A DNA stretch of 64,000 nucleotides from an uncultured Dehalococcoidales bacterium (GCA_964396965.1 CAYNGD010000003.1:106-64105), one strand, 5' to 3'. Counted from the stretch's first letter, positions 1,919 through 58,715 are shown. A program made the numbers and translations. Notes: a model not told the origin generated them from the letters alone.

Positions 1919-2062
1919 ATCTTCCCATATCCGCCCGCCCAAAGAGGTTTCACCTCTTTACATTTCTATTCCCCGCCCCAAGAGGGGTTAATTCCCCTTC
2001 TCCCCCCCAAGAAGAAATTGATAGAAGTAGCACTTCTGTAGGGTGGGTTTGGGTGGGAAGTA
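1919..2062. repeat. Intergenic inverted-repeat element, copy E1
   Basis: CTTCCCATATCCGCCCGCCC at 1921-1940 and GGGTGGGTTTGGGTGGGAAG at 2041-2060; shares AGGTTTCACCTCTTTAC and CTTCTGTAGGG with copy E5. Confidence 0.8.
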
Positions 2063-2123
2063 AGCCCAAAGCGTTTGAGCACCCCCTATGGCTGTGTTAT
2101 AATTCCATCGTAAGGATAACGTT

Positions 2124-3194
2124 ATGTGGGATAGACTAGACCAGATAGAGAAGCGCTACCAGGAGCTTGACCGCCAGATGGCCCGGCCGGAGCTGGCCAC
2201 CGACCTCAAGCGGCTGCAAACGCTGGCCCAGGAGAAGGCGGAGATTGAAGACCTGGTGATCAAATACTGGGCCTACCGGGCTACCGCCAGGGAGCTGGAG
2301 GAAACAAAAGGGATGCTGGACAGCGCCCTGGACGAAGAGATGGGTCGGATGGTCAGGCAGGAGATAGAGAAGCTGGAGGCGAAGCGGCAGCGCCAGCTTG
2401 ACGGGCTTAAGACCGCCCTGGCACCCAAGGACGCCAACGACGACAAGGATATCATCATGGAGATAAGGGCCGGCACCGGCGGCGACGAGGCCGGTCTCTT
2501 TGCCGCCGACCTCTTCAGAATGTACAGCCGCTATGCTCAGGACAAGGGCTGGGCGGTGGATATAATCGACAGCAACGAGAGCGGCATCGGCGGCTTTAAG
2601 GAGATTATCTTTGAGATAAAGGGGAGGGGCGCTTTCAGCCGCCTCAAGTATGAGAGGGGGGTGCACCGGGTGCAGCGGGTGCCGGTCACCGAGTCCTCGG
2701 GGCGTATCCACACCTCGACGGCCACCGTGGCCGTCCTCCCCGAGGCCGACGAGGTTGATATTGACATCAACCCCGAAGACCTCAGGGTCGACATCTTTCA
2801 CAGCGGCGGGGCGGGGGGCCAGAACGTCAACAAGGTAGCCACCGCCGTCCGCATCACCCACCTGCCCACCGGCATCGTCAGCACCTGCCAGGACGAGCGC
2901 TCCCAGCTCCGGAACCGGAGGAAGGCGATGGCGGTACTCCGCGCCCGCCTGCTGGATATAGAGCGGAGCAGGCAGGAGGAGGCAATAACCCAGCAGCGCC
3001 GCTCCCAGGTGGGAGGTGGCAAGCGCGCCGAGAAGATAAGGACCTATAACTTCCCCCAGGACCGCGTCTCCGACCACCGCCTCGGCCAGAGCTTCCGCAG
3101 CCTGCCCCGCATCCTTGATGGCGACCTCGACCCGCTTATAGATGCCCTGGCCTCAAGCGAGCAGGCCAGACAGATGGAGGAGCAGCCGGCTTGA
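2124..3194 (+). CDS. prfA: Peptide chain release factor 1
   Basis: GGQ motif, PVT anticodon-like tripeptide, EIRAGTGGDEA; upstream of prmC. Confidence 0.97.
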   Translation: MWDRLDQIEKRYQELDRQMARPELATDLKRLQTLAQEKAEIEDLVIKYWAYRATARELEETKGMLDSALDEEMGRMVRQEIEKLEAKRQRQLDGLKTALAPKDANDDKDIIMEIRAGTGGDEAGLFAADLFRMYSRYAQDKGWAVDIIDSNESGIGGFKEIIFEIKGRGAFSRLKYERGVHRVQRVPVTESSGRIHTSTATVAVLPEADEVDIDINPEDLRVDIFHSGGAGGQNVNKVATAVRITHLPTGIVSTCQDERSQLRNRRKAMAVLRARLLDIERSRQEEAITQQRRSQVGGGKRAEKIRTYNFPQDRVSDHRLGQSFRSLPRILDGDLDPLIDALASSEQARQMEEQPA

Positions 3195-4057
3195 CCCTGA
3201 AGCAGGCACTCCGCCGCGCCCGGGAGGTTCTCAGCCAGAACGGCGTTGAGGATGCCCCACTGGAGAGCGAGCTGCTGCTGCGCCATACCCTTAAGATAGA
3301 CCGGGTCCAGCTATATATTGACCTTGAAAAGGAACTGCCCCCCCGGCAGGAGCAGACTTTCCGCCGTTTATTAAAGCGCCGCTTGAACGGCGAGCCGGTG
3401 GCCTATATCACCGGCTACCGCGAGTTCTACGGGCTTGACTTCAGGGTTAACCGTAATGTCCTCATCCCCCGCCCCGAGAGCGAGCTTCTGGTGGAAAAAA
3501 CAATAGCTCTTGCTACAAACCACCCCTTACCGTTAATTGCCGACATCGGTACCGGCAGCGGGGCTATTGCTGTCAGCCTGGCGCTTGGCTTGCCCCGGGC
3601 CAAAATTTACGCCACCGATATCTCTGCCGCCACCCTTAAAATAGCCCGGCTCAACTGCCGCAGACACAGCGTGGCTGACAGGGTGCTTCTTTTAGAGGGC
3701 AACCTGCTGGAGCCGTTACCGGAGCCGGTTGACATTATCGTGGCTAACCTGCCCTACGTCCGTAAATCAGAGTTAAACCCGCAGTCAGAGCCGCCGCTGG
3801 CGCTGGACGGCGGTGCCGACGGGACGGAGATTATAGGAAGGCTCTGTCGGCAGGCGGAGGGCAGGCTTAAACCCGGCGGCTGGCTGCTGCTGGAGATAGG
3901 CCAGGGGCAGGGGGAGACGGTCGGGGATATTTTACATAACATATTACCCGATGGCAAGATAGATGTCTTCCCCGACTTGGCCGGCATCGAACGGGTAGTA
4001 TCCCTTAGCCTATGCACAAGCTCGGCTCAACTTGACAGGCAGTGCCTACACTGTTAA
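3191..4057 (+). CDS. prmC: Release factor glutamine methyltransferase
   Basis: DIGTGSG and ANLPY motifs; 4-bp overlap with prfA. Confidence 0.95.
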   Translation: MTLKQALRRAREVLSQNGVEDAPLESELLLRHTLKIDRVQLYIDLEKELPPRQEQTFRRLLKRRLNGEPVAYITGYREFYGLDFRVNRNVLIPRPESELLVEKTIALATNHPLPLIADIGTGSGAIAVSLALGLPRAKIYATDISAATLKIARLNCRRHSVADRVLLLEGNLLEPLPEPVDIIVANLPYVRKSELNPQSEPPLALDGGADGTEIIGRLCRQAEGRLKPGGWLLLEIGQGQGETVGDILHNILPDGKIDVFPDLAGIERVVSLSLCTSSAQLDRQCLHC

Positions 4058-4114
4058 ATTAGATAGTTAGTTTTCCCTAAATTTTAATGGTTAAACGGGA
4101 GGAATTGAGTCGTC

Positions 4115-4915
4115 ATGAACGTGGTTGTCTGCATCAAACAGGTGATTGACCCCGAGGCACCCCCCGCCAGCTTCAAGATCGACCCCGCCAGTAATAAAGT
4201 GGTGCCGCCGGCGGGGGTCTCGCCGGTGGTTGACCCCTACGCCGAATACGCCGTTGAGGCGGCGCTAAAGCTCAAGGATGCCGTGGGGGGCAAAATCACC
4301 GCCCTCAGCCTGGGCTCGAACCAGCTCCGGGACATTGTCAAGAAACCGCTGGCGATGGGGGCGGACGAGCTTATCCTGTTAGAGGATGAGGCCTTCGACG
4401 GGGGCGATAGCTGGTCAACCGCCTACGCCCTGGCCCTGGCCATCAAGAAGATAGGCGAGTATGATATTATCTTCTGCGGCCGTGAGGCCTCGGACTGGAA
4501 CGCCGGACAGGTGGGCTCGGGGATAGCCGAGATACTGGGGCTGCCCAGTGTCACCCTGGCCGAGAAGATAGACATCGCCGACGGCAAGGCCAAGGTGCAG
4601 CGCAAGACCGACGAGGGCTACGAGGTGGTTGAGGTGTCACTGCCCTGCCTGATTACCGTCAGCAACGAGATTGGCGAGCCCCGCTACCCCACCATAAAGG
4701 GGATTATGGCTGCCAAGAAGAAGGAGGCGGTGGTCTGGAAGCCGGCTGATATCGGTGTTGACCCCGCCAAGATAGGCGCTGGTGGCCGGCATACCAAGCT
4801 GCTCAAACTGTTCCAGCCGGTCAAAGAGGGCAAGTGCGAGATAGTCGAGGCGGAGAGCCCGGAGGAAGCGGCTGTGCTTCTGGCGGTAAAGTTGCGGGAG
4901 GTCAAGGTACTATAA
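4115..4915 (+). CDS. etfB: Electron transfer flavoprotein beta subunit
   Basis: VVCIKQV, LAMGAD, GQVGSGIAEILG, EPRYPTIKGIMAAKKK. Confidence 0.95.
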   Translation: MNVVVCIKQVIDPEAPPASFKIDPASNKVVPPAGVSPVVDPYAEYAVEAALKLKDAVGGKITALSLGSNQLRDIVKKPLAMGADELILLEDEAFDGGDSWSTAYALALAIKKIGEYDIIFCGREASDWNAGQVGSGIAEILGLPSVTLAEKIDIADGKAKVQRKTDEGYEVVEVSLPCLITVSNEIGEPRYPTIKGIMAAKKKEAVVWKPADIGVDPAKIGAGGRHTKLLKLFQPVKEGKCEIVEAESPEEAAVLLAVKLREVKVL

Positions 4916-8690: not shown

Positions 8691-10750
8691 GCCTTCTCTT
8701 TTTCCGCCTGTCTCTCGGCGATAATCTTCTGGGCAACGTGGGCCGGCACCTCTTCGTAGTGGCTGAAGACCACCTTGTAGCTGCCCCGCCCCTGGGTTAT
8801 CGATTTCAGGTCGATGGCGTAGCGCAGTATTTCCGCCAGCGGCACCTGGGCTTCGATAATATTGACGCCTCCCCCGGGGTTCATCCCCTGCACCCGCGCC
8901 CGCTTGGTGTTGAGGTCGCCGATGATGTCGCCGGTGAACTCCTCGGGGACGGTGGCGGTGATGTTCATTATCGGCTCTAGCATTATCGGCTGCCCCTCGG
9001 TCATCCCTTTCCTGAGCGCCCCCGCCCCGGCAATCTTGAAGCATATCTCCGAGGAATCAACCGGGTGGAAGCTACCGTCGTAGACGGTTGCCCTGAGGTC
9101 GGTGACCGGGTAGTGCGCCAGCACCCCTTCCTTAAAGGCCTCGTTGACCCCCTTCTCCACCGCCGGTATGTAGTTCCTGGGTATGGCCCCGCCCACCACC
9201 TTATCGGCGAATTCGGTGCCGCTGCCCCTGGGCAGGGGCTCAAGCTCGAGCAGGACATGCCCGTACTGACCGTGCCCGCCCGTCTGCTTCTTGTGCTTGT
9301 ACTCGGCCTTGGCGCCGACGGTTATCGTCTCTTTGTAGGGGACTCTGGGTGTCTCCAGTGTTACCGCCACCCCGAACTTGCGCAGCATCTTTTCCGCCGC
9401 CACCTCCAGGTGTGACTCCCCCATGCCGGAGATAACCGTCTCGCCAGTATCAGTGTCACGGCGCACGTGCAGGGTTGGGTCTTCCTCAACTATCCGGGTT
9501 AAAGCTGACCCCAGCTTGTCCACGTCAGTCTTGGTCTTGGGATGCACCCCCAGGCTGAAGGCCGGCTCGGGGAACTCGATAGGGGCGATTGTTAGCGGCT
9601 TGTCCTGGCTGGTGAGGCTATCGCCAGTGCTGGTCAGGGCCAGCTTGGCCACCGCCCCGATGTCCCCCGCCCCCAGCTGGGGCACCGGCTCCTGGTTCTT
9701 GCCCCTCAATACGAAGAGCTGGCCGATGCGCTCGGCACCCTTGCGGCTGGCGTTCCAGACCTGCGAGTTGCTGCTGATGGCGCCGTTATAGACCCGGAGG
9801 TAGGTCAGCTTGCCCACGTAGGGGTCGGCGCTGGTCTTGAAGACCAGAGTCGCCAGCGGCCCGTCCGGGCTGGGCTCGGTCATCTGTCTGGTGGAATCGC
9901 TTAAGGTGACCACCTTGCCCTCTTTGGGCGAGGGCAGGTAGCCGCAGATGGCGTTAAGAAATAGCTTAAAGCCGATATCTTTCAGTGCCGAGCCGGTGAA
10001 GATGGGCACCAACTTGCTGCCCACCACCGCTTGCCGCAGGCCTCTACTCAGTTCCTCCTGGCTGAGTTCGCCCCCCTCCAGGTACTTCTCGATAAGCTTA
10101 TCATCGGCCTCGGCGGCGGCCTCTATCAGTTTCTCCCGGTAGGATTCGGCCTGCTTTTTGAGCGCTTCGGGCAGCTCGGCCTCTTTCCCCTCGGTGCCGG
10201 TATAGGCCTTCATGGTCAGCAGGTCAACTACACCCTCGAACTTGTCCTGGGCACCGATGGGCAGCTGTGCCGGCAGGCACCTTGGGCCGAACTTGGCCTG
10301 AATCTGCCCCACCGTTTTGTTGAAGTCGGCGTTCTCCCGGTCCATCTTGTTGATGAAGATAAGACGGGGCAGCTTGTCTTTTTCGCAGTAACCCCAGGTT
10401 ATCTCGGTGCCCACCTCGACCCCCGAGGCGGCGCAGACCATGATTATCGCCCCCTCGGCCACCCTCATGCTGGCCTTGACCTCGCCGACGAAGTCGGCAT
10501 AGCCGGGGGTGTCCAGCAGGTTAATCTTGATGTCCTGCCACTGGCAGGGGAGAATGGACAGGTTGATGCTTATCTGGCGCTTCACCTCGTTTTCGTCATA
10601 GTCCGAGGTGGTCGTCCCGTCCTCGGTCTTGCCCAGACGCTTGATGGCGCCGGCGTTAAACAGCATGGCCTCGGCGGCGGTGGTCTTGCCGGCGCCGCTG
10701 TGCGACAGCAGGACGACGTTGCGGATATTCTCCATTCCCTGTTTTGGCAT
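8687..10750 (-). CDS. fusA2: Elongation factor G paralogue (EF-G II type)
   Basis: SHSGAGKTT, RQISI in place of RGITI, DTPG, NKMD, KKQTGGHGQYG; outside the str operon. Confidence 0.9.
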   Translation of the reverse strand: MPKQGMENIRNVVLLSHSGAGKTTAAEAMLFNAGAIKRLGKTEDGTTTSDYDENEVKRQISINLSILPCQWQDIKINLLDTPGYADFVGEVKASMRVAEGAIIMVCAASGVEVGTEITWGYCEKDKLPRLIFINKMDRENADFNKTVGQIQAKFGPRCLPAQLPIGAQDKFEGVVDLLTMKAYTGTEGKEAELPEALKKQAESYREKLIEAAAEADDKLIEKYLEGGELSQEELSRGLRQAVVGSKLVPIFTGSALKDIGFKLFLNAICGYLPSPKEGKVVTLSDSTRQMTEPSPDGPLATLVFKTSADPYVGKLTYLRVYNGAISSNSQVWNASRKGAERIGQLFVLRGKNQEPVPQLGAGDIGAVAKLALTSTGDSLTSQDKPLTIAPIEFPEPAFSLGVHPKTKTDVDKLGSALTRIVEEDPTLHVRRDTDTGETVISGMGESHLEVAAEKMLRKFGVAVTLETPRVPYKETITVGAKAEYKHKKQTGGHGQYGHVLLELEPLPRGSGTEFADKVVGGAIPRNYIPAVEKGVNEAFKEGVLAHYPVTDLRATVYDGSFHPVDSSEICFKIAGAGALRKGMTEGQPIMLEPIMNITATVPEEFTGDIIGDLNTKRARVQGMNPGGGVNIIEAQVPLAEILRYAIDLKSITQGRGSYKVVFSHYEEVPAHVAQKIIAERQAEKEKA

Positions 10751-15741: not shown

Positions 15742-16530
15742 TCAGCCAGCGCCCGCCGTTCCTATCAGTTCGGCGATAGTCTTATCGCCGCTTGTTTGGG
15801 GATAGAATTTCAGGCTGGTCCCCCAGTGCGGGTCGGGCCCTATACCGGCCACCGCTTCCCCTATCGTCATCTTTTGTGTACACAGGCTGGTGATGAGCTC
15901 GGCGGTGGCAGGGTCAACGTAGCCCAGGTCAACGCTGCCGTCCCAGCCCAGGTAGGCTGACGCTCCCTTCAGGGTAAAGGCGGCGGCCATATCGGTGTGG
16001 TAGGTACAGGAGCAGCCCATCATGATTATCACCGTGTTGTCGAAGCGCCCCTCCGTCTTTTCCAGGATGAACTTGGAGTTGACGGCGAAGACCAGGGGAA
16101 AGTCCGCCTCTATTTCCGCCGGCAGTAGCTGGTCGTCAAGCTGCTCGCGGACATAGCTGGACTGTTTGTATTCCTCAGCGGTGAACAGGTAGGTGTCCTG
16201 CTTTACCCCCACCACCTCCGAGCCCTCCTCCGCCTTGAGCAGCCCGGCGTGGGCGCGGAAGATTATCAGCTTATAGCCGTATTTGGGCAGCCTTTGGTAG
16301 AGCTTTACGCTGACCTCTTTGCCCGTGTAAACGTCCACCTTGAAGCCGGCGGCTTCGAGTTCGGCGGTGACTTGGTTGATGAAAGCCTGGTTCGGCTCTA
16401 AAACGGCCAGCTGGTCAACGATGGCGGCTTTGGGGCCTGAGTCGGGGTGGGGCTGGGGGCAGCCGGCGACTAGAATCAGCCCCGGCAGGACCAGAGCTAA
16501 CACCGCCAGGGCGATGAAGTAGCGCTTCAC
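15742..16530 (-). CDS. Hypothetical lipoprotein, possible caspase/gingipain-like fold
   Basis: Lipobox LVAGC; IIFRAHAG and IIMMGCS segments; AYLGW. Confidence 0.55.
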   Translation of the reverse strand: MKRYFIALAVLALVLPGLILVAGCPQPHPDSGPKAAIVDQLAVLEPNQAFINQVTAELEAAGFKVDVYTGKEVSVKLYQRLPKYGYKLIIFRAHAGLLKAEEGSEVVGVKQDTYLFTAEEYKQSSYVREQLDDQLLPAEIEADFPLVFAVNSKFILEKTEGRFDNTVIIMMGCSCTYHTDMAAAFTLKGASAYLGWDGSVDLGYVDPATAELITSLCTQKMTIGEAVAGIGPDPHWGTSLKFYPQTSGDKTIAELIGTAGAG

Positions 16531-18098
16531 AGTTTTTTGGGTCTATTGGCTCGCCTTATTAAAATCAAACAGCCGGCAGTTAAAGCCAGGAGGAGGGCGG
16601 CGCTTAAGATGAGCCAGGGCAGCAGCAGGGCTGCCTTATCTACGGGATAGACCGTACCCCCTACCGTTCCGCCAGACGGTGGGGGTGGCGGTGAAGTAGT
16701 CAGATGGAAGGCAACAGCGCCGCCGTTGGCTACCGCCCAGCCGCTGATGGCACCCCACTTGTCGGTGGACATCACCCGCCAGTAATAGTCACCGTCAGGG
16801 AGGGTCTGCCCCTCGCTGCCCGCAGTGTATGTCCCGCTCCCCTCGGCTTGTCCCACGGTGAAGCTGGCTGGCCCCTGGGCGAGCAGCTCCGAGGTGTAGT
16901 AGACTACCGGAGACGAGAAACCGGAGTCATTATCTATCTGGATGGTGTACTGGACGGTATCGTAGGTGTTAGGGTCGCTCTGGGTGAAGGTTAGTTCAGG
17001 GGTATTATCATTAACCGAGCTTCCGTCCACACATTCGGGTGGGCCCAGGTTGGTGGGGGTGTTGGGGGGGGCGTTGGCAAAGTATTCGTCGGCGCCGATG
17101 TCCACAATGGGTGAGGCGGCGTCCTCCCAGATGCGGGGGTCGCCCTCAAAGTCGGTGGTAAGCCAGCCCGGCACGGCGGCGTTGTCCCCGGCGTCAATGC
17201 AGGGGGAGGTGGCTTGGAGGTGGTAGTCGCCGCCGCCGACAAGTTGGGGGTCGGTGGTGAGACCGTTGCTTGATGTGCAGTTGACCAGGGTATTGCTGTA
17301 GATATCGTTGTAGTTAATGGTAAGGGTGGGGGTAAGACAGTATATTCCACTGCCGCTAGTTGCCGAGTTACTGGCAATGATGTTATTGGTAACGGTGGGT
17401 ACGGCTGAGCTGCCATCAACATAGATAGCGCCGCCGTTGCTGCCGGCCGTGTTGCTGACGATGGTGTTATTGATGATGGTGGGTTGGGAGGTGCTGCTGA
17501 TGTAGATGGCGCCGCCGTTGCTGGCGGCCGTGTTGCCAGTGATAATGCAGTTGGCGATGGTTGGGAAGGAGAGAGACCGGCAGCCGATGGCACCGCCGGT
17601 GCCGTAGGAGGTGTTGTTCTCGAAAACGCAATTAATTATCCTTGGTGAGGCGGGATTATTGATAATATAAATCCCGGCACCCCCGCTACCCGCTTCGTTG
17701 CCGGTGAAGATGCAGTTGCTCACCGTCGGCGAGCCGCCGTCGTCGTGCATCCCGCCGCCGAAGCTAGCCGCGCCGCCGGTGATGGTGAAGCCGTCGAGGG
17801 TGGTCGTCGAGTTAATGCTACCGACGTTAACCACCGAGGTAGAGCCGGTGCCCTGAATAGTGGTGGTGGCGGCCCCTGCCCCCAGCACCGATACCCCGTT
17901 TTTCAGGGTGATGTCCTCATTGTAGGTGCCGGCAGCCACATATATAGTATCTCCGGAGGAAGCAGCGGTAATGGCTGCTTGGATGGTGGTATAGTCACCC
18001 GGGACGTTGTAGCTTGCTCCCTGCGCTGGCAGTGCTATCACCAGGCTGAAGCTCAACACCAGCCCCAGGGCGAGCAGGATGCTCAGCAACCGCCTCAT
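16527..18098 (-). CDS. Secreted right-handed beta-helix (pectin lyase-like/DUF1565) surface protein with Ig/Fn3-like domain and C-terminal anchor
   Basis: Signal peptide, VPGDYTTIQAAI, repeated GGAIY/NNTIVSN, SPCIDAG, YYWRV, C-terminal TM with basic tail. Confidence 0.8.
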   Translation of the reverse strand: MRRLLSILLALGLVLSFSLVIALPAQGASYNVPGDYTTIQAAITAASSGDTIYVAAGTYNEDITLKNGVSVLGAGAATTTIQGTGSTSVVNVGSINSTTTLDGFTITGGAASFGGGMHDDGGSPTVSNCIFTGNEAGSGGAGIYIINNPASPRIINCVFENNTSYGTGGAIGCRSLSFPTIANCIITGNTAASNGGAIYISSTSQPTIINNTIVSNTAGSNGGAIYVDGSSAVPTVTNNIIASNSATSGSGIYCLTPTLTINYNDIYSNTLVNCTSSNGLTTDPQLVGGGDYHLQATSPCIDAGDNAAVPGWLTTDFEGDPRIWEDAASPIVDIGADEYFANAPPNTPTNLGPPECVDGSSVNDNTPELTFTQSDPNTYDTVQYTIQIDNDSGFSSPVVYYTSELLAQGPASFTVGQAEGSGTYTAGSEGQTLPDGDYYWRVMSTDKWGAISGWAVANGGAVAFHLTTSPPPPPSGGTVGGTVYPVDKAALLLPWLILSAALLLALTAGCLILIRRANRPKKL

Positions 18099-23603: not shown

Positions 23604-23640
23604 CTTTAGGGTAACCCCTTATCCCCCCACCCAATAAAGA

Positions 23641-23662
23641 GAGGGGGCTTTTAAGCCCCCTC
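23641..23662. terminator. Hairpin downstream of SDR gene
   Basis: GAGGGGGCTT-TT-AAGCCCCCTC perfect 10-bp stem; no clear U-tract. Confidence 0.5.
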
Positions 23663-23699
23663 ATAACCCATTTCCCCATCCCGCTTTCATCCCAGCGTT

Positions 23700-37391: not shown

Positions 37392-38206
37392 AAGGCGAAG
37401 GTTTTCTTACCAAGAACATCTCCAGTTTAACCCACACCCTGGAATCTATAATTTCGACCGAAGATTTGTGCCGCGCTCCGGGATTACTCCAGGGCTTAGA
37501 CTCAAGGGTTAAAGTGGTGACCTTCCTGCTTTTCATTGTCATGGTTGGCCTGGCACGGAGTCTATCGGCACTGGCGATAATATTTGTCCTGATCTTGACT
37601 TTGAGTTTCCTCTCTAAAGTGCCGCTGGTGTTTTTCCTCAAGCGTGTTCTCATCTTCATCCCTATCTTTACCGCGGTGATTGCCCTGCCGGCTCTCTTTA
37701 TCACACCGGGCTCACCTCTGGTAGCCCTTGCCGGTAAGATAATCATTACTGAGCAAGGCGCCCGCACTGCCGGGCTCCTGTTCCTTAGAGTAACGGACTC
37801 ACTGTCTTTTGGGGTGCTCCTCATTCTGACTACACCCTGGGCCAGCATACTCGTGGCATTACGTTGGCTTCGTATACCATCGCTACTCGTAGACATCCTG
37901 GGCATGACTTACCGTTATATATTTCTCTTATTGCATACTACCAATTCTATGTTCCTAGCGCGCCGAAGCCGCACCATAGGGAGCTTCTCCAGCGGAGAAA
38001 ACCGACGATGGCTGATTAGGGCCTTAACCACAACGATGGCCAAGTCACAATACCTTAGCGAGGAAGTATATCTCGCTATGCTTTCCCGGGGTTACCAGGG
38101 AGAAACACGTGTCTTGAATGACTTTAGAATAAGGCGCCGGGATTTATTATGGGTAGCCTTTGCCTTGATTGCCGCATCTATCTTATTCTGGGGTAACTAT
38201 CTATGA
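37388..38206 (+). CDS. cbiQ: ECF transporter transmembrane component CbiQ/NikQ
   Basis: LQGLDSRVK, MTYRYIFLL, AMLSRGY; GTG start overlaps cbiM stop. Confidence 0.9.
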   Translation: MKGEGFLTKNISSLTHTLESIISTEDLCRAPGLLQGLDSRVKVVTFLLFIVMVGLARSLSALAIIFVLILTLSFLSKVPLVFFLKRVLIFIPIFTAVIALPALFITPGSPLVALAGKIIITEQGARTAGLLFLRVTDSLSFGVLLILTTPWASILVALRWLRIPSLLVDILGMTYRYIFLLLHTTNSMFLARRSRTIGSFSSGENRRWLIRALTTTMAKSQYLSEEVYLAMLSRGYQGETRVLNDFRIRRRDLLWVAFALIAASILFWGNYL

Positions 38207-39027
38207 GCATATTTGACACAGGGCATATTTTCGAGGCAAAGAACCTGAGCTATGATTATCCAGGAAATGTTCCGGCTTTGAGACAGGTCAACTTTACCAC
38301 TGGAGCGGGAGAATTGATAGCCCTGGTAGGAGTGAATGGCTCTGGGAAGAGCACTCTACTCAAGCTACTGGACGGACTTATATTTCCCACAGACGGAGAG
38401 GTGCTGGCTTTTGGGCATCCTCTTTCCGAAGAGACATTAAAAGACGGGACTTTTGTTGCAGAATTTCGCCGCAAAGTCGGGCTGGTGTTTCAGGACCCGG
38501 ATGTGCAGCTCTTTTCTTCCACGGTCTGGGACGAAGTAACCTTCGGCCCACTTCAGTTGGGAATTCCCAAGGAGGAAGTAGTATCCAGAGGTCTGGAAGC
38601 CCTCAAACTGCTCAACATCGCTCATCTTCGAGAGCGTCCCCCGTATCTTCTCTCTGGTGGGGAGAAAAAGAAGGTCTCCCTGGCTTCCGTGCTTTCATTG
38701 CATCCCCAGGTTCTCCTCCTTGACGAGCCTACTACTGGCCTGGATCCGCAGAGTCAGGGAAATCTTATTGATTTCCTGTTTCAATGGGCCGATGAGGGAA
38801 GGAGCGTGGTTTTCAGTACTCAAGACCTAGATATTGTGGAGGAGATTGCTACCCGTGTGATTGTCATGGGAGCCGAACATAACATTCTGGCTGACGGTAA
38901 GCCGGAAGAATTCCTGTCTGATCCAGATTTTCTCCTTCGGACTAACCTTGTCCATGAACACTCACACAGGCATAGGGAACTCGTACACCGCCACCCACAC
39001 CTGCACGAGCACCAGCACCAGCACTAA
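38203..39027 (+). CDS. cbiO: ECF transporter ATPase CbiO/NikO with His-rich tail
   Basis: GVNGSGKST, LSGGEKK, LLDEPT, HEHSHRH...HRHPHLHEHQHQH. Confidence 0.92.
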   Translation: MSIFDTGHIFEAKNLSYDYPGNVPALRQVNFTTGAGELIALVGVNGSGKSTLLKLLDGLIFPTDGEVLAFGHPLSEETLKDGTFVAEFRRKVGLVFQDPDVQLFSSTVWDEVTFGPLQLGIPKEEVVSRGLEALKLLNIAHLRERPPYLLSGGEKKKVSLASVLSLHPQVLLLDEPTTGLDPQSQGNLIDFLFQWADEGRSVVFSTQDLDIVEEIATRVIVMGAEHNILADGKPEEFLSDPDFLLRTNLVHEHSHRHRELVHRHPHLHEHQHQH

Positions 39028-39083
39028 GGAATATTACCAGAACGGAACCAACGATATAGATGTACTTAGTTATTGCCTGGCCT

Positions 39084-39319
39084 TCATGAATTCTCCACAC
39101 GTGATCTGCCCCCCAGCCATTTTTGATAGCCGGTGATAATCTGCTGATAGCGCTCGATAGTTTTGGGGTCCCGGTCGCTTTGCGCTAGCTCCTGTGATAT
39201 AATTCGAAAGGGTCTGCCATATCAAGGCAATTGTAGTGCATGCCAGCTGGCATACTGTGCACAAGCTGAAAAGCGATACTTTTGGCAATTGCCTGAATTT
39301 GGCTTTCGGTTAGTCTTGT
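39084..39319 (-). pseudogene. Decayed integrase-like fragment, int(C), N-terminal SAM-like domain
   Basis: TRLTESQIQAIAKSIAF...DPFELYH, 1-nt deletion, then QELAQSDRDPKTIERYQQIITGYQKWLGGR; catalytic domain absent. Confidence 0.6.
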
Positions 39320-39346
39320 AACTCGGCTTACAGGTTTACTTGGCCT
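39320..39346 (+). repeat. attR: displaced copy of rnpB 3' end
   Basis: AACTCGGCTTACAGGTTTACTTGGCCT, identical to 28436-28462. Confidence 0.93.
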
Positions 39347-39490
39347 GACTTTAAGGCAAAGAACTCTCTCCCGCCTCTACTTTTCTTTTATTGCGCCTAC
39401 CGTAGTGTCAACATCATTGACAATATTCATCAATATGATTTAAACTATTAACAATTAGTCTATAGTTAATATAATGTTGGGGAAAAGGGA

Positions 39491-39949
39491 ATGATAATGG
39501 ACAAAGCAGAGTCAATTAAGGGAATTGTTGAACTGCAGCGGCAGGCAGGTCGGATTCTGGGGCAGTATGCCGCCAGTGTCTGGCTTGATTCGGGCCTTAC
39601 CCTGGCCCAGCTCAGAAGCCTGTTCTTGATTACTAAAAAGGGAACTACCAACTTTAGGAAGCTGGCAGAAGCTTTGGGAGTCACCCCCGCCGGCGTTACC
39701 CGCATTGTTGACCGCCTGGTGGAGCAGGGGCTGGTCAGCCGGAGGGAGGACCCCAGTGACCGCCGCATGATGGTATTGCAGCCAACGGTTAAGGGGCAAA
39801 CCATCATAGCTAACCTCAGGGAGAGCGGCATAAATCAAATGACCCGGATACTGACGCTTCTCAGCCTGGAAGAGCTTGATGCTCTGTCTCAAGGGCTTTC
39901 CGCGTTTATAAGGGCGGCCAAAACCTACCAGGGAGAGACTCATCCATGA
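39491..39949 (+). CDS. MarR family regulator
   Basis: LTLAQLRSL, VTRIVDRLVEQGLVSRREDPSDRR. Confidence 0.92.
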   Translation: MIMDKAESIKGIVELQRQAGRILGQYAASVWLDSGLTLAQLRSLFLITKKGTTNFRKLAEALGVTPAGVTRIVDRLVEQGLVSRREDPSDRRMMVLQPTVKGQTIIANLRESGINQMTRILTLLSLEELDALSQGLSAFIRAAKTYQGETHP

Positions 39950-40950
39950 ATATGATTGAAGTGGAGGGGCTGACCAAGCGCTTTGGTGAATTCACGGCGG
40001 TGGATCATGTCTCTTTTCAGGTTGAAAAGAGCGAGATACTCGGCTTCCTCGGCCCCAATGGAGCCGGCAAATCGACAACATTACGCATGCTCTGCACCCT
40101 GCTGCGGCCAACAGAAGGCAGCGCCAGGGTAGCCGGTTTTGATATCGCCAGTGAACCGGACAAGGTGAGAGGACACATCGGGCTGGTGGCTGAGAAGCTC
40201 ATCCTTTACGACCAGCTGACCGCTGAGGAGAACCTTACCCTTTTCGGCAGGCTGAACAACCTGCCCGAAGCGCAAATCAGACAGGGAATAGATAAGTGGC
40301 TTGGCCGTCTCCATATGGAGGCATGGCGCAAGTATAAGGTAGGGGCATTTTCAACAGGCATGAAGCAGCGGATAAACGTTGCCCGCGCCCTTCTCCATCA
40401 CCCCGACGTCCTCTTCCTTGACGAGCCTACCCTGGGACTCGACCCGCAGACGACCAGGGCCATTCACGAATTTATTATCGAACTGGGCCAGGAAGGCATC
40501 ACCACCGTGCTCACCACTCATGACATGGTTGAAGCCGGGGCTCTCTGTCATCGCATCGCCATTATTGACCGGGCCAAGATAGTTGCCCTTGATACCACCG
40601 GTAATTTGAAGCGGCTGGTCTCTAACGGCGATACGACGGTAGTTGATATGGAAATCTCCAACCTTAGCCAGTCGATGCTCTCTCAGATGAAGGATGTGGA
40701 GGCGGTTGTCTCCGTAGCGCAAACTGATTCGTACCGGGTGAGAATCAACATCAAGGGTAGCGATGCGGTCGGCCGGATTGTGAGCGCTGTCGTCGCTGGT
40801 GGGGGTAATATCCGGGCGATAAACACGGCGGAACCGAGCCTGCAGGATGTCTTCCTGTATCTTACCGGGCGTGAGATGCGCGACCAGGCGACTGAGAGGG
40901 TTCCTTCAGTTCGGGGACGCCGCTGGCGAAGAACCTCAAGAGTGAGATAA
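39946..40950 (+). CDS. ABC exporter ATP-binding protein (DrrA-like)
   Basis: GPNGAGKST, FSTGMKQR, LDEPTLGLDP, PSLQDVFLYLTG. Confidence 0.92.
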   Translation: MNMIEVEGLTKRFGEFTAVDHVSFQVEKSEILGFLGPNGAGKSTTLRMLCTLLRPTEGSARVAGFDIASEPDKVRGHIGLVAEKLILYDQLTAEENLTLFGRLNNLPEAQIRQGIDKWLGRLHMEAWRKYKVGAFSTGMKQRINVARALLHHPDVLFLDEPTLGLDPQTTRAIHEFIIELGQEGITTVLTTHDMVEAGALCHRIAIIDRAKIVALDTTGNLKRLVSNGDTTVVDMEISNLSQSMLSQMKDVEAVVSVAQTDSYRVRINIKGSDAVGRIVSAVVAGGGNIRAINTAEPSLQDVFLYLTGREMRDQATERVPSVRGRRWRRTSRVR

Positions 40951-40958
40951 TAAAGAAG

Positions 40959-42155
40959 GTGATTGGTATGCTTGGTGATTTCAGAAGGGTGGTCATGCAT
41001 AGCCTCCGCCTCGGAATTAAAGACCTTTTGGTCTTCGCCCGTGACCGGATGATGCTTATCTCCTTTATAATCATGCCTATCTTCATGATGATAATGATGG
41101 GCTTTATCTTCCCGTCACAGAACGTTTTGAAGAATGCCCCGTTGGGCATCGTCAATCTCGACGAGGGCCCGCTCGGTGCCCAGATAAATTCGGCAGTCCA
41201 GCAGCTAAACCGGCAGCAGAGTGAACGGATGTTCGCCATAACCTATCTCCGCAGCAAGGGCATGGCCATAGAACAGATAAAGGAGCAGATGATAAATGGC
41301 GCCATAATTATCCCTGCCGACTTCTCGGCCAAGATAGCCGATGGCGAGCAGGCCTCGGTTATTATCATCACCGACCAGTCCAACCCCCAGGTATCGGCGG
41401 GTATCACCGGGGTACTGGACGCGCTCATGTCCACCACGGCCAGCCAGCTGGCCGCCAAGAACGTAGCCGCCCTGGTGCCGGGTGTGAGCGACCCGCAGTC
41501 GCTGGTTATGCCGTTTACGGTAGAGACCGAGGGCACCGTTCCGGGCAAGCCCAACTATTTCGAGTTCATCGCTCCCGGCCTGATGGCAATGGTCATCATG
41601 TTTGCCGCTATGACCGGCCTGGCGGCTTCCATATCGAGAGAACGCGAACTGGGTACCCTGGATGGCATCCTGTCAGCTCCCATTAGCCGGCTTTCTATCG
41701 TGCTGGGCAAGAGCTTCGCCCAGGTGGTGCGCGGACTGCTGCAGGCCATGCTCGCCCTGATTCTGGCTATAGTGCTCTTTGGTGTCGTCGTTCACGGCAG
41801 CTACGCCCTGCTGTTTTTACTACTGTTGCTGACCGTATTCTCTTTTATCGGCATCGGCATCATAATATCGGCGCTGGCTTCGGAACAGGAGACCGCCATG
41901 ACGATAATGATGACCATCACCTTTCCCATGCTCTTTCTTTCCGGTGCCCTCTTTCCCATTCAACAGATGCCGACCGCTGTCCAGGCTGTTTCTAAGTTTC
42001 TGCCGCTGACCTATGCGGTTAACGCCCTGCGCAAGTGCATCGTGCTCGGCACCGGCATCACCGGGATGATGACGGAGGTCTGGGTGATGCTCGGTTTCGG
42101 CATTGTTTTTACGGTGATCGCAATACCTGTGTTCAATCGGATTATTAGCCGGTAA
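40959..42155 (+). CDS. ABC-2 type permease
   Basis: ERELGTLDGIL, PMLFLSGALFPI, PLTYAVNALR. Confidence 0.9.
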   Translation: MIGMLGDFRRVVMHSLRLGIKDLLVFARDRMMLISFIIMPIFMMIMMGFIFPSQNVLKNAPLGIVNLDEGPLGAQINSAVQQLNRQQSERMFAITYLRSKGMAIEQIKEQMINGAIIIPADFSAKIADGEQASVIIITDQSNPQVSAGITGVLDALMSTTASQLAAKNVAALVPGVSDPQSLVMPFTVETEGTVPGKPNYFEFIAPGLMAMVIMFAAMTGLAASISRERELGTLDGILSAPISRLSIVLGKSFAQVVRGLLQAMLALILAIVLFGVVVHGSYALLFLLLLLTVFSFIGIGIIISALASEQETAMTIMMTITFPMLFLSGALFPIQQMPTAVQAVSKFLPLTYAVNALRKCIVLGTGITGMMTEVWVMLGFGIVFTVIAIPVFNRIISR

Positions 42156-42190
42156 CAGACTCAAGGCATAACAGTTGGAGGAACTAACCG

Positions 42191-43573
42191 ATGAAGAAAT
42201 TGTATTTCTGGCTGTCAATCATTTTGGCAATAACGCTGTTTGTGGGGACAGCCGCCCCGGCATCGGCCCGAGTCAAGGGGGAGCCTGACCTGCAGGCAAC
42301 GGTGGTCGGGAGTGGTGAGTTTCCGGTAGGGCAGGTGGGAGTGTTACAGATAATGCTCCAGAACAACGGGACTTTCTCCGGCGGGACGGAAGACCCGGAT
42401 GACCAGGTGATGGCGCTCGGCTACACCAATGCCTTGGGCGTTACCCTGGCACCGCCCTGCACCACCGCTATCAGTGTCACCGCTACTTTGGAATCGACCA
42501 GTCCATCAATTAAAGTCCTGAGCGGGCCCACGGCGGTTGGGACCCTGCCCCGCGGGATGACCACAGTGCAGCCAGTAACCTTTCAACTCCAGGTGGCTAA
42601 GAACGCCCAACCCGGGACCTACTCTCTCCAGGTGGAACTTAAATATCAGTACCTGCAAAACGTTAACTGGCTCAATCCGATACAGCTCGTCCCCGCCGGG
42701 CTGACGAGCTCATCCTACCAGCCTGAGTTTGCCTTCTACTGGGGGAACAAAGAACAGCAGGTGGAGATACCGATAACGGTTGTCGGCACCTATTTCTCGG
42801 TAGCGGTCACCCAGACAGAGGGCGTCAGGGTGGGGACAACCGGCGTTATAACGCTGGATATTCAGAACAGCGGGGGCGACGAGGCAGATGGGGTCACCGC
42901 TGAGGTAGTCCCCGGAGTCAATTTTTCTCCCCTCGGCCCGGCTAGTTTTCTGGGGGATATTCCCCGTGGTAGTTCGGTCACTACTCAATTTAAGGTGTCG
43001 GTCTCACCGAAGGCGATTGCCAAGGACTGTCCTCTGGATATCCTGATTAAGTATAAAGATGAGAAAAACATCCCCAGGCAGCTGCCGCTGACTGTCGGCG
43101 TGCCGGTGAAAGAAGAGGTGAAATTTGAGCTAGAGCCTACCAGGGTTGATGGTGGCAATCTTACCCCCGGGGCCGAAAAAATAATCGAAATTCCCATTGT
43201 TAATGCCAGCGATTCTGAGGTCAAGGATGCCACGGCCCGAATCAACATTGTCGACCCGTTTTCCACCGCCCCGTTTTCGACTACCGATGATACCGCCTAT
43301 ATCGGGACGCTCCAGCCGGGAGAAAGCGGCACGGCCAAGTTCAGGATAACCGTTGACACTGATGCCGTAGCCAAGGCATACACGCTGGAGGTGGAGGTCA
43401 AATACTGGGACTCTTTGGATAATTCCTATATCTCCCAGCCGATGAGGGCAGTGGTAACTGTGCAGCCGTCTTCTGGACTCTCGGTAACAACTATCGTTGT
43501 CATTTCCCTGGCGGCTGTGGTTGTCATCGGCATCATCTTCTACCTTATAAGAAGGGGCAGGAAAGCGGCGTGA
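42191..43573 (+). CDS. Secreted COG1361-like (S-layer-associated) Ig-repeat protein with C-terminal anchor
   Basis: Signal peptide, PGTYSLQVELKY, IGTLQPGES, C-terminal TM followed by RRGRK. Confidence 0.72.
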   Translation: MKKLYFWLSIILAITLFVGTAAPASARVKGEPDLQATVVGSGEFPVGQVGVLQIMLQNNGTFSGGTEDPDDQVMALGYTNALGVTLAPPCTTAISVTATLESTSPSIKVLSGPTAVGTLPRGMTTVQPVTFQLQVAKNAQPGTYSLQVELKYQYLQNVNWLNPIQLVPAGLTSSSYQPEFAFYWGNKEQQVEIPITVVGTYFSVAVTQTEGVRVGTTGVITLDIQNSGGDEADGVTAEVVPGVNFSPLGPASFLGDIPRGSSVTTQFKVSVSPKAIAKDCPLDILIKYKDEKNIPRQLPLTVGVPVKEEVKFELEPTRVDGGNLTPGAEKIIEIPIVNASDSEVKDATARINIVDPFSTAPFSTTDDTAYIGTLQPGESGTAKFRITVDTDAVAKAYTLEVEVKYWDSLDNSYISQPMRAVVTVQPSSGLSVTTIVVISLAAVVVIGIIFYLIRRGRKAA

Positions 43574-43669
43574 CCCTTAGCTGATGTCACTTTTGCTTGT
43601 TGCCGAATTTCCCCCTCTCGGCTATGATAACCCTGTCTGCCCAAGCGACTTTCAAGGAGAGTGAGTCTG

Positions 43670-44797: not shown

Positions 44798-44879
44798 TCC
44801 CCCACCCCGTTTTATGTCTTTTCCCGCCCGCCACCCTTTAAGGTAACGGGCTAAAGCCATTTTCACCCCGCCCACCCGC

Positions 44880-45085
44880 GTTTATTTTCCCATACCCTCC
44901 CTCCCAAAAAGGTTTCACCTCTTTACGTCACTTAACCCCCACCCCCTGAAGGGGACATTGATGGAAGTACAACTTCTGTAGGGAAGGGGGGTGGGAAGTA
45001 ATACAATCGCCAAAAATGGGAGTGGGGGGCAAGAAGTTTAAAGGCGTAGCCTTTGAGGGCGGGTTGGGTGGGAAGAAAAAACAAT
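44880..45085. repeat. Inverted-repeat element E5 (between convergent ctpA and elp3)
   Basis: CCCATACCCTCCCTCCC 44889-44905; internal GGGAAGGGGGGTGGG 44981-44995; AAAGGCGTAGCCTTTGA then GGGCGGGTTGGGTGGG 45057-45072. Confidence 0.85.
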
Positions 45086-45116
45086 TATTAACAAGGTGGG
45101 GGTAAAGTAGGTGGGG

Positions 45117-46478: not shown

Positions 46479-46559
46479 GGTGTGCCATAAACAGTGTAGC
46501 AGATTTAATTTGTAAACAGAAACAGGGCATTTGAGGGAATGCCTCGCCCATATTATATC

Positions 46560-46708
46560 TATTCCCTCCCGGCCACCCTTATGTGGAAGGGGTTACGCTC
46601 CACCCATTAAGGGGGTGTAGTGTCTCCTATCTTGGGGTGGGGCAGCAAGTTTTAGAAGCGAAGCTTATACGGGTGGGTGGGTATGGGAAACAAAACATAG
46701 GTTAAAAA
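46560..46708. repeat. Inverted-repeat element E6 (between divergent elp3 and methyltransferase)
   Basis: GGGTGGGTGGGTATGGGAAACAAAAC 46671-46696 is nearly the reverse complement of the E4 left end; left arm degenerate. Confidence 0.78.
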
Positions 46709-47371
46709 ATGAGGAAAAGCGCAACCAATAATAGATACATCTTTGACCAGATAGCCCCCAGTTGGTACAACTTCCGGCACTGGTCAATCTTCAGCGCCGA
46801 GCTTGAGCGACTGGCCAAACGCTGGCAGAGGGGCAGGCTGCTCAACCTGGGCTGTGCCCACGGCCCCGATTTCCTGCCCTTCAAAGACGGCTTCAAGCTC
46901 TACGGGGTGGACTTCTCCGCCGAGATGCTGAGGTTCGCCCAAAAATACGCTAAGAAATTCAGCTTTGATGTTGAGCTGGCGCTGGCTGATATCCGCTGCC
47001 TCCCCTACCCCGATGAGAGCTTCGACTGGGCGATAGCGGTGGCCACCTATCACCATCTGAGGAGTGGGGAGCACCAGGCCGCTTTAACTGAACTGAGGCG
47101 GGTCTTGAAACCCGGCGGCGAGGCCTTTATCACGGTCTGGAACCGCGGCCAGCCCCGCTTCTGGTTCAAGCCCAGAGAGGTGGAAATCCCCTGGCGCAAG
47201 AAGGGAGGAACTCTCTACCGCCGTTACTACCTCTTCACCTATAATGAGCTGGAAAGGCTGGCCAGGCAAGCCGGATTTGAGGTGATTAAATCTTTCCCGG
47301 AGAACGCCTACCGCTTTCCGGTGAAGCTATTCTCCCGGAATGTCCGCCTGTTAATAAAGAAGCCGGCCTAG
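46709..47371 (+). CDS. Class I SAM methyltransferase resembling Trm9/ALKBH8 tRNA mcm5U34 methyltransferase
   Basis: FDQIAPSW, LNLGC, AIAVATYHH, LKPGGEAFITVW, IPW, RRYYLFTYNEL; next to elp3. Confidence 0.75.
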   Translation: MRKSATNNRYIFDQIAPSWYNFRHWSIFSAELERLAKRWQRGRLLNLGCAHGPDFLPFKDGFKLYGVDFSAEMLRFAQKYAKKFSFDVELALADIRCLPYPDESFDWAIAVATYHHLRSGEHQAALTELRRVLKPGGEAFITVWNRGQPRFWFKPREVEIPWRKKGGTLYRRYYLFTYNELERLARQAGFEVIKSFPENAYRFPVKLFSRNVRLLIKKPA

Positions 47372-47853: not shown

Positions 47854-47929
47854 GATAATCACCCCCTTGCTCACGGTGGGATAGAACTGCATTATAGCAA
47901 CTTATCCCCTTTTGCCCAAATTAGAGTTC

Positions 47930-48125
47930 GTTTATCGTCCCATACCCTCCCGCCCACAAGGGTTATACCCTTTTCACATTTCTTTACCCCGCCCCCCATA
48001 GGAGAGGTGTCAGTCCTTTTCCCGTGATGGAGAGAAATTATGCCTTTTTCTGGGGAAAATTATCCCACCTATTTTTAGGGGTGTTAAAGAAGTGAAACCT
48101 CTATAGGGTGGGAGGGTGGGTAGCC
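47930..48125. repeat. Inverted-repeat element E7 (between tandem GNAT genes)
   Basis: CCCATACCCTCCCGCCC 47939-47955; GGGTGGGAGGGTGGG 48106-48120; internal GAGAAATTA. Confidence 0.85.
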
Positions 48126-48163
48126 AAACTCACTCTAAAAAACAGGCGGTAAGGTTCCCCGGG

Positions 48164-57630: not shown

Positions 57631-57632
57631 TT

Positions 57633-57842
57633 CTATTCCTCCTGGTACTCAAAAACCTCTTCTAGGGATACCCCGAAGGCCCGGGCAATCCTGAAGGCCA
57701 GCTCAATGGACGGCACATACTTGCCCTGCTCCAGGGCGATGATGGTCTGGCGCGTGCAGCCGGCGCGCTGGGCCAGCTCCTCCTGGGTCATCTCGCCGTG
57801 GTCGAAGCGCAGCCGGCGTATCTGGTTGTTTATCCTAGCCAT
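57633..57842 (-). CDS. XRE-family HTH regulator
   Basis: [26 protein letters not shown]. Confidence 0.9.
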
Positions 57843-58272
57843 ACCTGTTGGCTCTCCAGTAGCCGATAGCTATGCCCAGGCACTGCGCCAGCGTGCTGAC
57901 AATCAGGATGGACATGAATATTACGTAGAGATAGACGGCGGGTATGAGGCCGGTGTCCTGGTAGACCTCGTTGAGGGCGATGACCCAGGCCACCAGCGTG
58001 AAGATGACCGCCAGCCACTGGATGCGGGGCGCCCGTTCTACTATTCGGATGTCTCTTTCATCGACAATCTTTGGGTTACGTAACGGGATGTTGACGATGA
58101 CGCCATTGACGATGAGCGCCCCGATAAGTAGGGCGTCTATGATTAACCTGAAGGTCTGGTCGGCATCGAAGGTCCGGATGCCCCCCATCAGGACGAAGAC
58201 CAGCACGAAGGCGATAGCGAAAGCCAGCCCCACCCCCAGACCCCACCAGGCCCTTTTCTGCAACGGTGCCAT
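57835..58272 (-). CDS. Membrane protein (DUF2178-like) paired with XRE regulator
   Basis: Four TMs, IVDERD motif; SD GGAGG before ATG 58272. Confidence 0.7.
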
Positions 58273-58387
58273 ATTTCCTCCCTTCTCAGGTAATCTATAC
58301 AATACATATTGTAATGTATAAAATACTAAATGTCAAATATTTTTTACATCAGTTTGCAGAAACTCTCCCCCTTTCTAAATAGTGTTT

Positions 58388-58715
58388 AGCTTCCCATACC
58401 CGCCCGCCCAAAAAGGCTCCGCCTCTTTACCATCTCTTTACCCCCGCCCCCCAGAGGAGAGAAATTAACTTCCCTTTTCACTTAGAAAGGAGGGATTGAT
58501 GCCCCTTATTCCCCCACCCACTAACGAAAAATAGACTCCCAGACCTCGTAAAGCGGGGAATTGAGGGCGCTAACTCCTGTTGGGTGGGTTGGGGTGGTAA
58601 AAAGAACAACTGTTAAAGATGGGTGAGGGGGAATAAGAGAATTTTAGAGGCGAAGCCTTTGAGGTGGGTCAGGGTGGGAAGAAAAACGACTTAAGAATGG
58701 GTGGGTGGTTGGGGG
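58388..58715. repeat. Inverted-repeat element E8 (downstream of ruvB)
   Basis: CCCATACCCGCCCGCCC 58393-58409; G-tracts at 58582-58597, 58663-58678 and 58699-58715; AGAGGCGAAGCCTTTGA; GAGAAATTA. Confidence 0.85.

Follow-up and report, generated by a model that had tools for sequence, protein, structure and literature searches.

A dispersed family of palindromic intergenic repeats with candidate G-quadruplex motifs in Dehalococcoidales

We analysed a 64,000-nt stretch of DNA from an uncultured Dehalococcoidales bacterium, the whole of which is here called the window, and whose gene content (Elp3, prfA, RuvB, RpoC, rnpB and others) is consistent with this order. The spaces between its genes contain a dispersed family of inverted-repeat elements, which an original prediction made from the sequence had described as at least eight copies with inverted arms of about 40 bp and no cognate transposase in view. 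A site-by-site reading of the sequence located a copy at each of the eight positions; the copy at 23700 is a solo left arm and those at 44880 and 58388 are nested compounds. Among native intergenic gaps of at least 200 nt, 8/10 hold a copy, as against 0/5 of the gaps in a low-GC island next to rnpB (28478-43590), from which copies are absent as predicted. The left-arm pattern TTCCCAYMCCCNCCCNCCC has 10 matches in the window with up to two mismatches, against 0.21 expected from shuffles. The prediction had staked the family on a profile search finding more copies than shuffled sequence does, and nhmmer profiles for the two arms, trained exclusively on copies from other genomes, matched the window 25 times but matched none of 20 shuffles that kept its dinucleotide content. 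Its intergenic location was likewise borne out, with 88 of 91 elements lying between genes. For comparison we used related loci, designated by L numbers and drawn from genome-derived and metagenome sets; the nearest relatives found have an Elp3 identity of 78-91% and the gene order of the window.

The anatomy of the family was defined by an alignment of about 60 copies. The left arm runs from a C-run (CCCCNCCCC) through TTTTAAC, a T-rich linker and TTCCCA(TA)CCCNCCCNCCC to AAAAGG and a 5-7-bp hairpin, and the right arm is its inverted counterpart, consisting of the hairpin, GGGYGGGN1-3GGGTGGGAAG, an A-rich linker and a G-run. The inversion of the arms gives both strands a C-rich 5' part and a G-rich 3' part. 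The conserved arm measures about 75 nt on each side and is thus longer than predicted. Conservation reaches outwards for about 33 nt from TCCCATA in the left core and for about 30 nt from GGGAA in the right core before falling to zero; it is highest in the subterminal core and the hairpin and lowest at the termini. Between the two arms lies a variable, nested interior that gives core-to-core distances of about 60 to more than 260 nt. The shortest copies are a single hairpin; longer ones contain extra small hairpins and C-run/G-run modules or, as in copies E and H below, another complete element. The internal modules AGGTTTCACCTCTTTAC, CTTCTGTAGGG and GAGAAATTA are indeed shared between copies. 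A second type of left arm, T2, has TTTTCCCGCCCGCCGCCCTTAA followed by a GGGCTAAAGCCC hairpin and is partnered by the same right arm. Arm clusters comprise 38 with two arms and 37 solo arms away from locus edges, part of which may be paired with other arm types outside the model. Predicted folds are stable, at -41 to -124 kcal/mol (z of -1.2 to -5.6), and paired arms can form a long imperfect hairpin. Several genomes also have a further palindromic module, GGGGTGTTTAAGAGGGGC-loop-GCCCCTCTTCT, often followed by CCCCTTCCCCTTGAGGGGAAGGGG, which can share a spacer with the main family (L059 2150-2230; L067 1160-1240; L094 1830-1990; L095 5700-5990; L023 2920-3040; window 23630-23662).

The copies in the window, designated A to H, are on the plus strand with the exception of copy F. 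Copy A (1897-2072) is a simple element with a left arm at 1897-1969 and a right arm at 2007-2072, set between an encapsulin gene and the prfA promoter; its predicted fold has an energy of -56.8 kcal/mol and a z of -4.6. An element occupies the same place upstream of prfA in L036, where it is preceded by an apparent tRNA 3' end (GGTTCGAGTCCTACTCGGGGAGCCA; 4300-4345) at the position of the encapsulin gene of the window. Copy B (23677-23752) is the solo left arm, for which a right arm was looked for without success; C-run modules precede it, starting at about 23615. Copy C is an insertion of about 323 nt at the junction of a terminase-like gene and a 116-aa gene, with a span (25808-26130) set by empty-site comparison and arms at 25841-26108. 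The gap between the 116-aa gene and a CT398-like gene holds copy D (26655-26911), a full element with an orthologous copy in L091. The nested compound that the original prediction placed at 44880 is copy E (44798-45116), which begins at 44798 with a T2-type left arm (44798-44878) and continues with a standard left arm (44878-44933), an inner right arm (44954-45024) and an outer right arm (45036-45099). Copy F (46540-46713, minus strand) combines a T2-type arm (46540-46600) with a minus-strand L-type arm (46644-46713) in the spacer between the divergent Elp3 and methyltransferase genes, and copy G (47921-48153) is a full element between two GNAT genes. Copy H (58362-58714) is again a nested compound, having a left arm at 58362-58438, an inner right arm at 58564-58622 and an outer right arm at 58633-58698 plus a G-run flank, with a predicted fold of -124 kcal/mol (z -5.6). 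Finally, a T2-like fragment on the plus strand at 1-33 is cut by the window edge, and its positions 7-33 match 44801-44827 and 46542-46568.

We examined which features of the arms are conserved. The small hairpin beside the right core takes six or more different sequence forms, among them GAAGT/ACTTC, GAGGC/GCCTC, GAGGT/ACCTC and GGGGC/GCCCC. In the arm hairpin, 5.31 of 6 pairs are formed, compared with 4.33 +/- 0.13 when the 3' halves are swapped among copies, and at four positions GC and AT pairs have been exchanged with pairing kept. Its mismatches comprise 18 of the G.T and 13 of the A.C type and, because these numbers are about equal, neither strand is favoured. Variation is free in the one-base spacers that separate C or G triplets, and these show no covariation from arm to arm (29/40 pairable against a shuffle mean of 32.4). 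What is kept in each arm is a set of four G3 tracts with short pyrimidine loops, so that the G-rich strand carries a predicted G-quadruplex (G4) motif of the canonical short-loop form. Canonical motifs (G3+ N1-7 x4) number 18 in the window, 11 of them in elements that cover 2.9% of the sequence; overall such a motif is present in 147/164 arms, a count biased by the choice of seeds with the same pattern. Between positionally orthologous copies the G/C tract positions are identical in 129/129 cases and other aligned positions in 58%, a comparison that is biased because copies were recognized by their cores. A reading of the elements as intrinsic terminators or promoters was rejected, since two regions of about 3.6 kb with six copies held no excess of such signals over shuffles.

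Comparison of orthologous sites demonstrated that elements are gained and lost. Empty-site alleles, which the original prediction had listed among possible checks, were seen in relatives with about 90% Elp3 identity at gene junctions that are filled in the window. At site C, 323 nt are inserted in the window precisely where the stop of the 116-aa gene meets the terminase-like gene, the start of which now lies inside the insert; the site is empty in L091 and L094 (GGAGC|CTATTT), with junction homology of no more than 3 nt. The left 165 nt of copy C are an 89% copy of the neighbouring copy D. The terminase-like gene itself belongs to a block (24437-26590 in the window; 12311-14133 in L091; also in L094, L095 and L096) in which a terminase-large-subunit-like gene (Terminase_6C in relatives; split in L094) and 116-aa and 48-aa open reading frames (ORFs) keep their order beside housekeeping genes in at least five relatives, and which looks like a fixed phage remnant.

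At site E the genes for Elp3 and the S41 protease converge, and in five relatives (L089, at 9331-9368, L091, L093, L094 and L096) their 3' ends as called overlap, sharing 17-113 nt, the alignment covering L089 and L091 only. In the window 319 nt separate the two genes (44797/45117), both of which have different C-terminal residues and stop codons, and the Elp3 stop codon falls in the right edge of copy E. Site F is empty in L089, L093 and L096 and filled in the window, L091, L094 and L095, with differing interiors. A right arm or flank is kept at site G in five genomes, including L089, where most of the element has been deleted, L093 and L095, and L091 has a full copy. Two further filled/empty pairs were found, of 300 nt between L059 and L067 and of a 1-kb insert in L156 against a 3-nt spacer in L168. 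No arms were found in 9-17 kb of synteny in L089, L094 and L096, where the genes abut or overlap. Copies within a genome are mostly 70-90% identical, with a maximum of about 95%, and for this reason the family looks old, with slow turnover and no recent burst. Relatives, though not the window, have small ORFs next to remnants of elements, or between them, at sites G and E (L091 5451-5921; L095 3726-4190 and 7721-8149); these ORFs, for which Pfam gave no hits, encode a 154-156-aa protein and a 142-aa multi-pass membrane protein.

When one genome per species was scanned for the left core, 12 Dehalococcoidales assemblies proved to contain it, of which three are labelled Deltaproteobacteria, including JAUVYB, which is syntenic with the window; other hits were isolated and, where this could be judged, inside genes of unrelated phyla. 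JAUVYB01 (L008, L028, L045 and others) shares its gene order and 83% Elp3 identity with the window, and the Deltaproteobacteria labels of this metagenome-assembled genome (MAG) and of JAUWGI01 and JABMRW01, all of which carry the repeats, look wrong. At least 120 metagenome stretches, mostly from two JGI sample series, also contain the family, amounting to 177 elements in 756 kb. There was no match in IMG/VR or, by blastn, in phages and plasmids. Among 4227 Rfam covariance models the only hit at the gathering threshold was RNase P, and nothing fell within the elements even at E<=1. A literature search found no paper describing the family. The original prediction had not recognized a named family and had allowed that an Rfam match would overturn it; these searches leave that judgement standing.

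Local alignment of the 80-nt outer flanks of 35 full elements gave scores equal to those of mismatched controls, so that no consistent target duplications, another check named in the original prediction, were detected; the clean junctions at site C and in the L156/L168 pair involve 0-3 nt. Neighbouring elements do share a polarity. Independent neighbours have the same orientation in a ratio of 26:10 in genome loci and 50:4 in metagenome loci (76:14 together). Orientation bears no relation to the direction of flanking genes (40 '++' and 46 '--' in tandem settings), which argues for a polarity at the level of DNA. We found no relation with masked GC skew either (37 loci agree and 39 disagree, in stretches of 8-12 kb that give little power), with GC3 skew corrected for coding strand (59 against 57) or with the majority coding strand (40 against 36). 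Both replication-strand-specific insertion and local copying in the same sense fit the observed co-orientation.

We also looked for an enzyme that could mobilize the elements. In agreement with the original prediction, no transposase was found in the window among about 44 ORFs scanned, a set that leaves out most island ORFs (30.7-43.6 kb) and four others, and the only recombinase among them is a XerD/XerC equivalog with a score below the integron-integrase cut-off. Neither these ORFs nor about 1.2 Mb of Dehalococcoidales loci, which are genome fragments, yielded an ORF with the HUH/Y1 motif typical of RAYT-like proteins. The pattern matched only in L055, an unrelated Thiogranum MAG, where an ORF at about 204-917 encodes a typical RAYT-like protein (HVHLLV ... 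YIELNP), a chance pattern hit. No insertion sequence (IS) or transposase bounded by a pair of left and right arms was found in the 1.2 Mb, where enclosed ORFs are ordinary genes or cargo, and genome-derived loci contain no repeated ORF families beyond syntenic orthologues.

Foreign genes occur in or beside several elements. Five pairs of left and right arms are 0.75-2.8 kb apart, and four of them enclose low-GC genes, namely a type II restriction-modification (R-M) pair of N6_N4 methylase and MvaI/BcnI endonuclease (L117), AbiV (L156), a 456-aa ORF (L183/L100) and RNase H with a 94-aa ORF (L172). The fifth (L156, 4431-7214) encloses ordinary-looking genes and may represent two solo arms. In the window, solo arm B is directly followed by low-GC cargo on the plus strand (23782-24326), comprising a 12/12 sigma70-type promoter (TTGACA-16-TATAAT; 23782-23809) and an NYN-domain gene (23808-24326); the GC content of this cargo is 0.38 as against 0.57, and it is absent at the orthologous site in L091 and L094. 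The apex of copy F in L091 holds a 380-nt insert with an 85-aa ORF. These six foreign gene sets have a GC content of 0.38-0.48 compared with 0.56-0.61. What lies between the same arms at one orthologous locus depends on the genome: L002 has an intact element of 200 nt, L117 has the R-M pair and L183/L100 has the 456-aa ORF. In L018 a different sequence follows the same left arm up to the contig end. The cargo in L117, L183 and L156 is bordered by the CCCCNCCCC module downstream of the left hairpin and by a C-run upstream of the right hairpin. All five cargos of clear orientation are read in the direction from the left to the right arm, and three cargos start with a near-consensus sigma70 promoter. 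This small sample suggests that foreign cassettes enter preferentially at the centre of an element or are exchanged through homology provided by the arms.

We consider it somewhat more probable than an even chance that the elements are non-autonomous, lineage-specific palindromic intergenic repeats of the REP/REPIN/ERIC kind, which would spread through a folded single strand with the help of an enzyme acting in trans. The MITE/REP/ERIC-like reading (MITE, miniature inverted-repeat transposable element) of the original prediction is thus supported by the intergenic inverted repeats and by presence or absence at orthologous sites; the four-G-tract arms, nesting, co-orientation of neighbours and foreign gene cargo had been missed. 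Movement is probably that of a folded single strand, as indicated by the subterminal and structural nature of the conserved parts, the lack of regular target duplications, the many solo arms and the shared polarity of neighbours. Under this proposal, elements would be copied through a strand folded as a hairpin and/or G-quadruplex, rather than by DDE cut-and-paste at the termini, and the folded strand would be recognized by the enzyme supplied in trans. That elements are gained, lost, nested and partly copied within intergenic DNA is shown by the comparisons above. Once settled, they would separate tightly packed or overlapping genes and could supply start or stop codons, and their centre may act as a landing place for foreign gene cassettes.

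Several observations weigh against this interpretation. No mobilizing enzyme was found in the window ORFs scanned or in the approximately 1.2 Mb of related loci, although a single-copy gene is easily missed. Recent bursts are not evident from the identities within genomes, and the invariant G/C tracts fit a functional constraint in place as well as a constraint on transposition. Imperfect duplications of gene ends, of 15-20 nt, flank sites E and F; these could be what allows an insertion to survive where genes overlap or abut, instead of a trace of the mechanism. Finally, we found no tie of co-orientation to GC skew or coding strand; local duplication, rather than a link with replication, could be the explanation.

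An alternative that we regard as unlikely is that the elements are maintained by host selection, as GC-rich hairpins with G-quadruplex- or i-motif-prone arms that would serve in place as bidirectional insulators, stabilizers of transcript 3' ends or protein-binding sites, similar to roles of REP and BIME sequences, and whose copy number would shift by ordinary duplication and deletion. The invariance of the G/C tracts in orthologous copies with divergent loops, spacers and interiors is in keeping with this, as are the freely varying tract loops that do not covary with the partner arm and the concentration of G4 motifs of the window in so small a part of its sequence. Positions are also retained over long divergence, upstream of prfA in L036 (72% gene identity) and for the site G right arm in five genomes, and the C-rich-then-G-rich order on both strands would make any effect independent of orientation. 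However, close relatives do without the elements, L089, L094 and L096 having long syntenic stretches free of arms, and the test of tract identity favours copies with intact cores. Neither promoter-like nor terminator-like signals exceeded shuffles in the regions scanned, and the T-rich 5' and A-rich 3' setting is the reverse of that of an intrinsic terminator.

The cargo raises a different question, whether the elements are recombination sites. It is possible, though doubtful, that the arms are recognized as G-quadruplex or i-motif structures and that the centre is a dedicated integration site at which promoter-bearing defence cassettes are swapped at C-run cores, forming a platform in Dehalococcoidales with the function of an integron but another construction. 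A proposal that we find rather unlikely is that circular or incoming cassettes, each with a promoter, integrate at the central C-run core and the arms become their borders, similar in function to attC/attI sites but unrelated in sequence. Such sites would account for the six low-GC foreign sets (type II R-M, AbiV, NYN, RNase H, and the 456-aa and 85-aa ORFs), for the locus at which an intact element, the R-M pair or the 456-aa ORF lies between the same arms, for the C-run borders, uniform reading direction and initial promoters of the cargo, and for the co-orientation of neighbouring elements. Nevertheless, cases are few, and the usual setting of an element is between housekeeping genes, whichever way these are oriented. 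No cargo recurred in identical form at a second locus, and no dedicated recombinase was seen, the window ORFs scanned having only XerD/XerC. Foreign DNA may settle in these spacers simply for want of other non-essential DNA, or the cargo may have been exchanged by homologous recombination through flanking arms or genes.

It is improbable that the family is a classic MITE, that is, a remnant left by deletion within a DDE insertion sequence, with terminal inverted repeats that serve for cut-and-paste movement. The long inverted arms, intergenic location, insertion polymorphism and nesting are all compatible with a MITE, and sites E and F, like the L059 insert, have imperfect direct repeats on either side. 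Yet target duplications are not regular, solo arms are many, the poorest conservation is at the termini and none of the arm pairs in the 1.2 Mb encloses a transposase. The structured-RNA alternative allowed by the original prediction, in which the elements are small RNA genes or cis-regulatory motifs, has stable predicted folds and a covarying arm hairpin to commend it but is very improbable and the least likely of these explanations, given that there is no Rfam match, orientation is unrelated to flanking genes, G.T and A.C mismatches show no strand preference, the interior varies from about 60 to more than 300 nt and no promoter or terminator of its own was detected in the two regions scanned.

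Palindromic repeats scattered between genes, with no transposase in evidence, are a kind of element already known, and we compared the family with described examples. Like the REP/REPIN sequences (Bertels & Rainey, PMC3116915; PMC3337134), it consists of inverted doublets of palindromic units that form long hairpins, with decayed singletons and many intergenic copies per genome, and it is lineage-specific and long-persisting with a conserved structure. Unlike them, it has arms of about 75 nt rather than units of 20-40 nt, four full G3 tracts per arm and a modular, nested interior able to hold genes. A conserved GTAG/CGTC tag is lacking (GTAGGG occurs in 29/91 right-type and 0/73 left-type arms), and we saw no sizeable group of identical master copies. 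REPIN-bearing genomes have a single-copy RAYT (Y1 HUH) gene flanked by the repeats; no RAYT was found in the loci sampled here. G-tetraplexes are formed by certain REP single strands and have been proposed as RAYT recognition elements (PMC4690160). By analogy, the four-tract arms are a plausible recognition feature here. BOX elements of Streptococcus and BIMEs of E. coli also combine few module types in variable number and order, whereas the modules of the present family are bounded by CCCCNCCCC runs and form nested inverted pairs. ERIC/IRU and Correia (NEMIS) elements are imperfect intergenic palindromes of proteobacteria, 100-160 bp long, with size variants that arise through internal insertions; some copies are positionally conserved between species and they can alter the expression of neighbouring genes, and we know of no enzyme that mobilizes them. 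The Dehalococcoidales elements share with these their intergenic imperfect palindromes, internal-insertion size variants and some positions conserved between species, but the sequences are unrelated, the TA target duplication and integration host factor (IHF) site of Correia elements were not seen, and the G-tract cores, C-run module borders and strong co-orientation belong to the present family.

Other likenesses are with systems of recombination or transposition. Integron attC sites, with the boxes R'' (RYYYAAC) and R' (GTTRRRY), are recombined by the IntI integrase. The present elements resemble them in having imperfect inverted repeats with structure conserved above sequence, in being co-oriented and in adjoining accessory genes in one direction, and the outer boxes (TTTTAAC ... 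AAAAA) loosely recall R'' and R'. The GTT of R' is, however, unconserved, the right flank being (G/C)(T/C)TAAAAA with low information at GTT, and the elements are dispersed among housekeeping genes rather than arrayed, with cargo that brings its own promoter. An attC reading was rejected on the poor conservation of GTT and because no IntI was found among the window ORFs scanned. The G4 of pilE in Neisseria gonorrhoeae triggers recombination and is a single locus with a dedicated small-RNA promoter. Its form, G3-N-G3-NN-G3-N-G3, is near-identical to that of some right arms (GGGCGGGTTGGGTGGG at 45057-45072), with the difference that the family described here is dispersed and has one motif per strand. 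IS200/IS605-derived PATEs have subterminal hairpins of like orientation at their left and right ends, insert 3' of a fixed tetra- or pentanucleotide and have an orientation tied to replication. In the present family the arms are inverted and not direct, no fixed flanking motif was seen and co-orientation is strong without a detected link to GC skew. As far as the tools used can show, the family itself is undescribed, and it is distinguished from known families by its long arms, two full G-quadruplex motifs per element, C-run-bounded modular nesting, strong co-orientation and gene cargo.

Two other features of the window were observed. The copy-free island (28478-43590) spans about 15.1 kb of lower GC directly after the 3' end of rnpB and contains ABC transporter and binding-protein genes, with CTTTTG at both borders; in L091 the promoter region of the S41 protease directly follows rnpB. 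On the minus strand, a gene for a beta-helix/PMP-repeat protein (16527-18098) has an internal tandem array (17338-17652) with a period of 81-84 nt.

Dehalococcoidales genomes are small and tightly packed. One repeat family, lacking in close relatives, makes up most long intergenic spacers in this clade and is therefore a main source of intergenic change between them. Gene ends are altered at these sites, through a new start codon for the terminase-like gene and, coincident with an insertion, different stops and C-termini for the S41 protease and Elp3. The family marks places where defence genes (R-M, AbiV, NYN) have entered and is thus useful for the annotation of MAGs and the finding of accessory genes, and it is plausible that its repeats may break contigs when MAGs of this group are assembled. 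Finally, as the family holds most of the strong G4 motifs of the window, it provides a natural bacterial system in which to ask whether G-quadruplexes direct the mobility or recombination of DNA.

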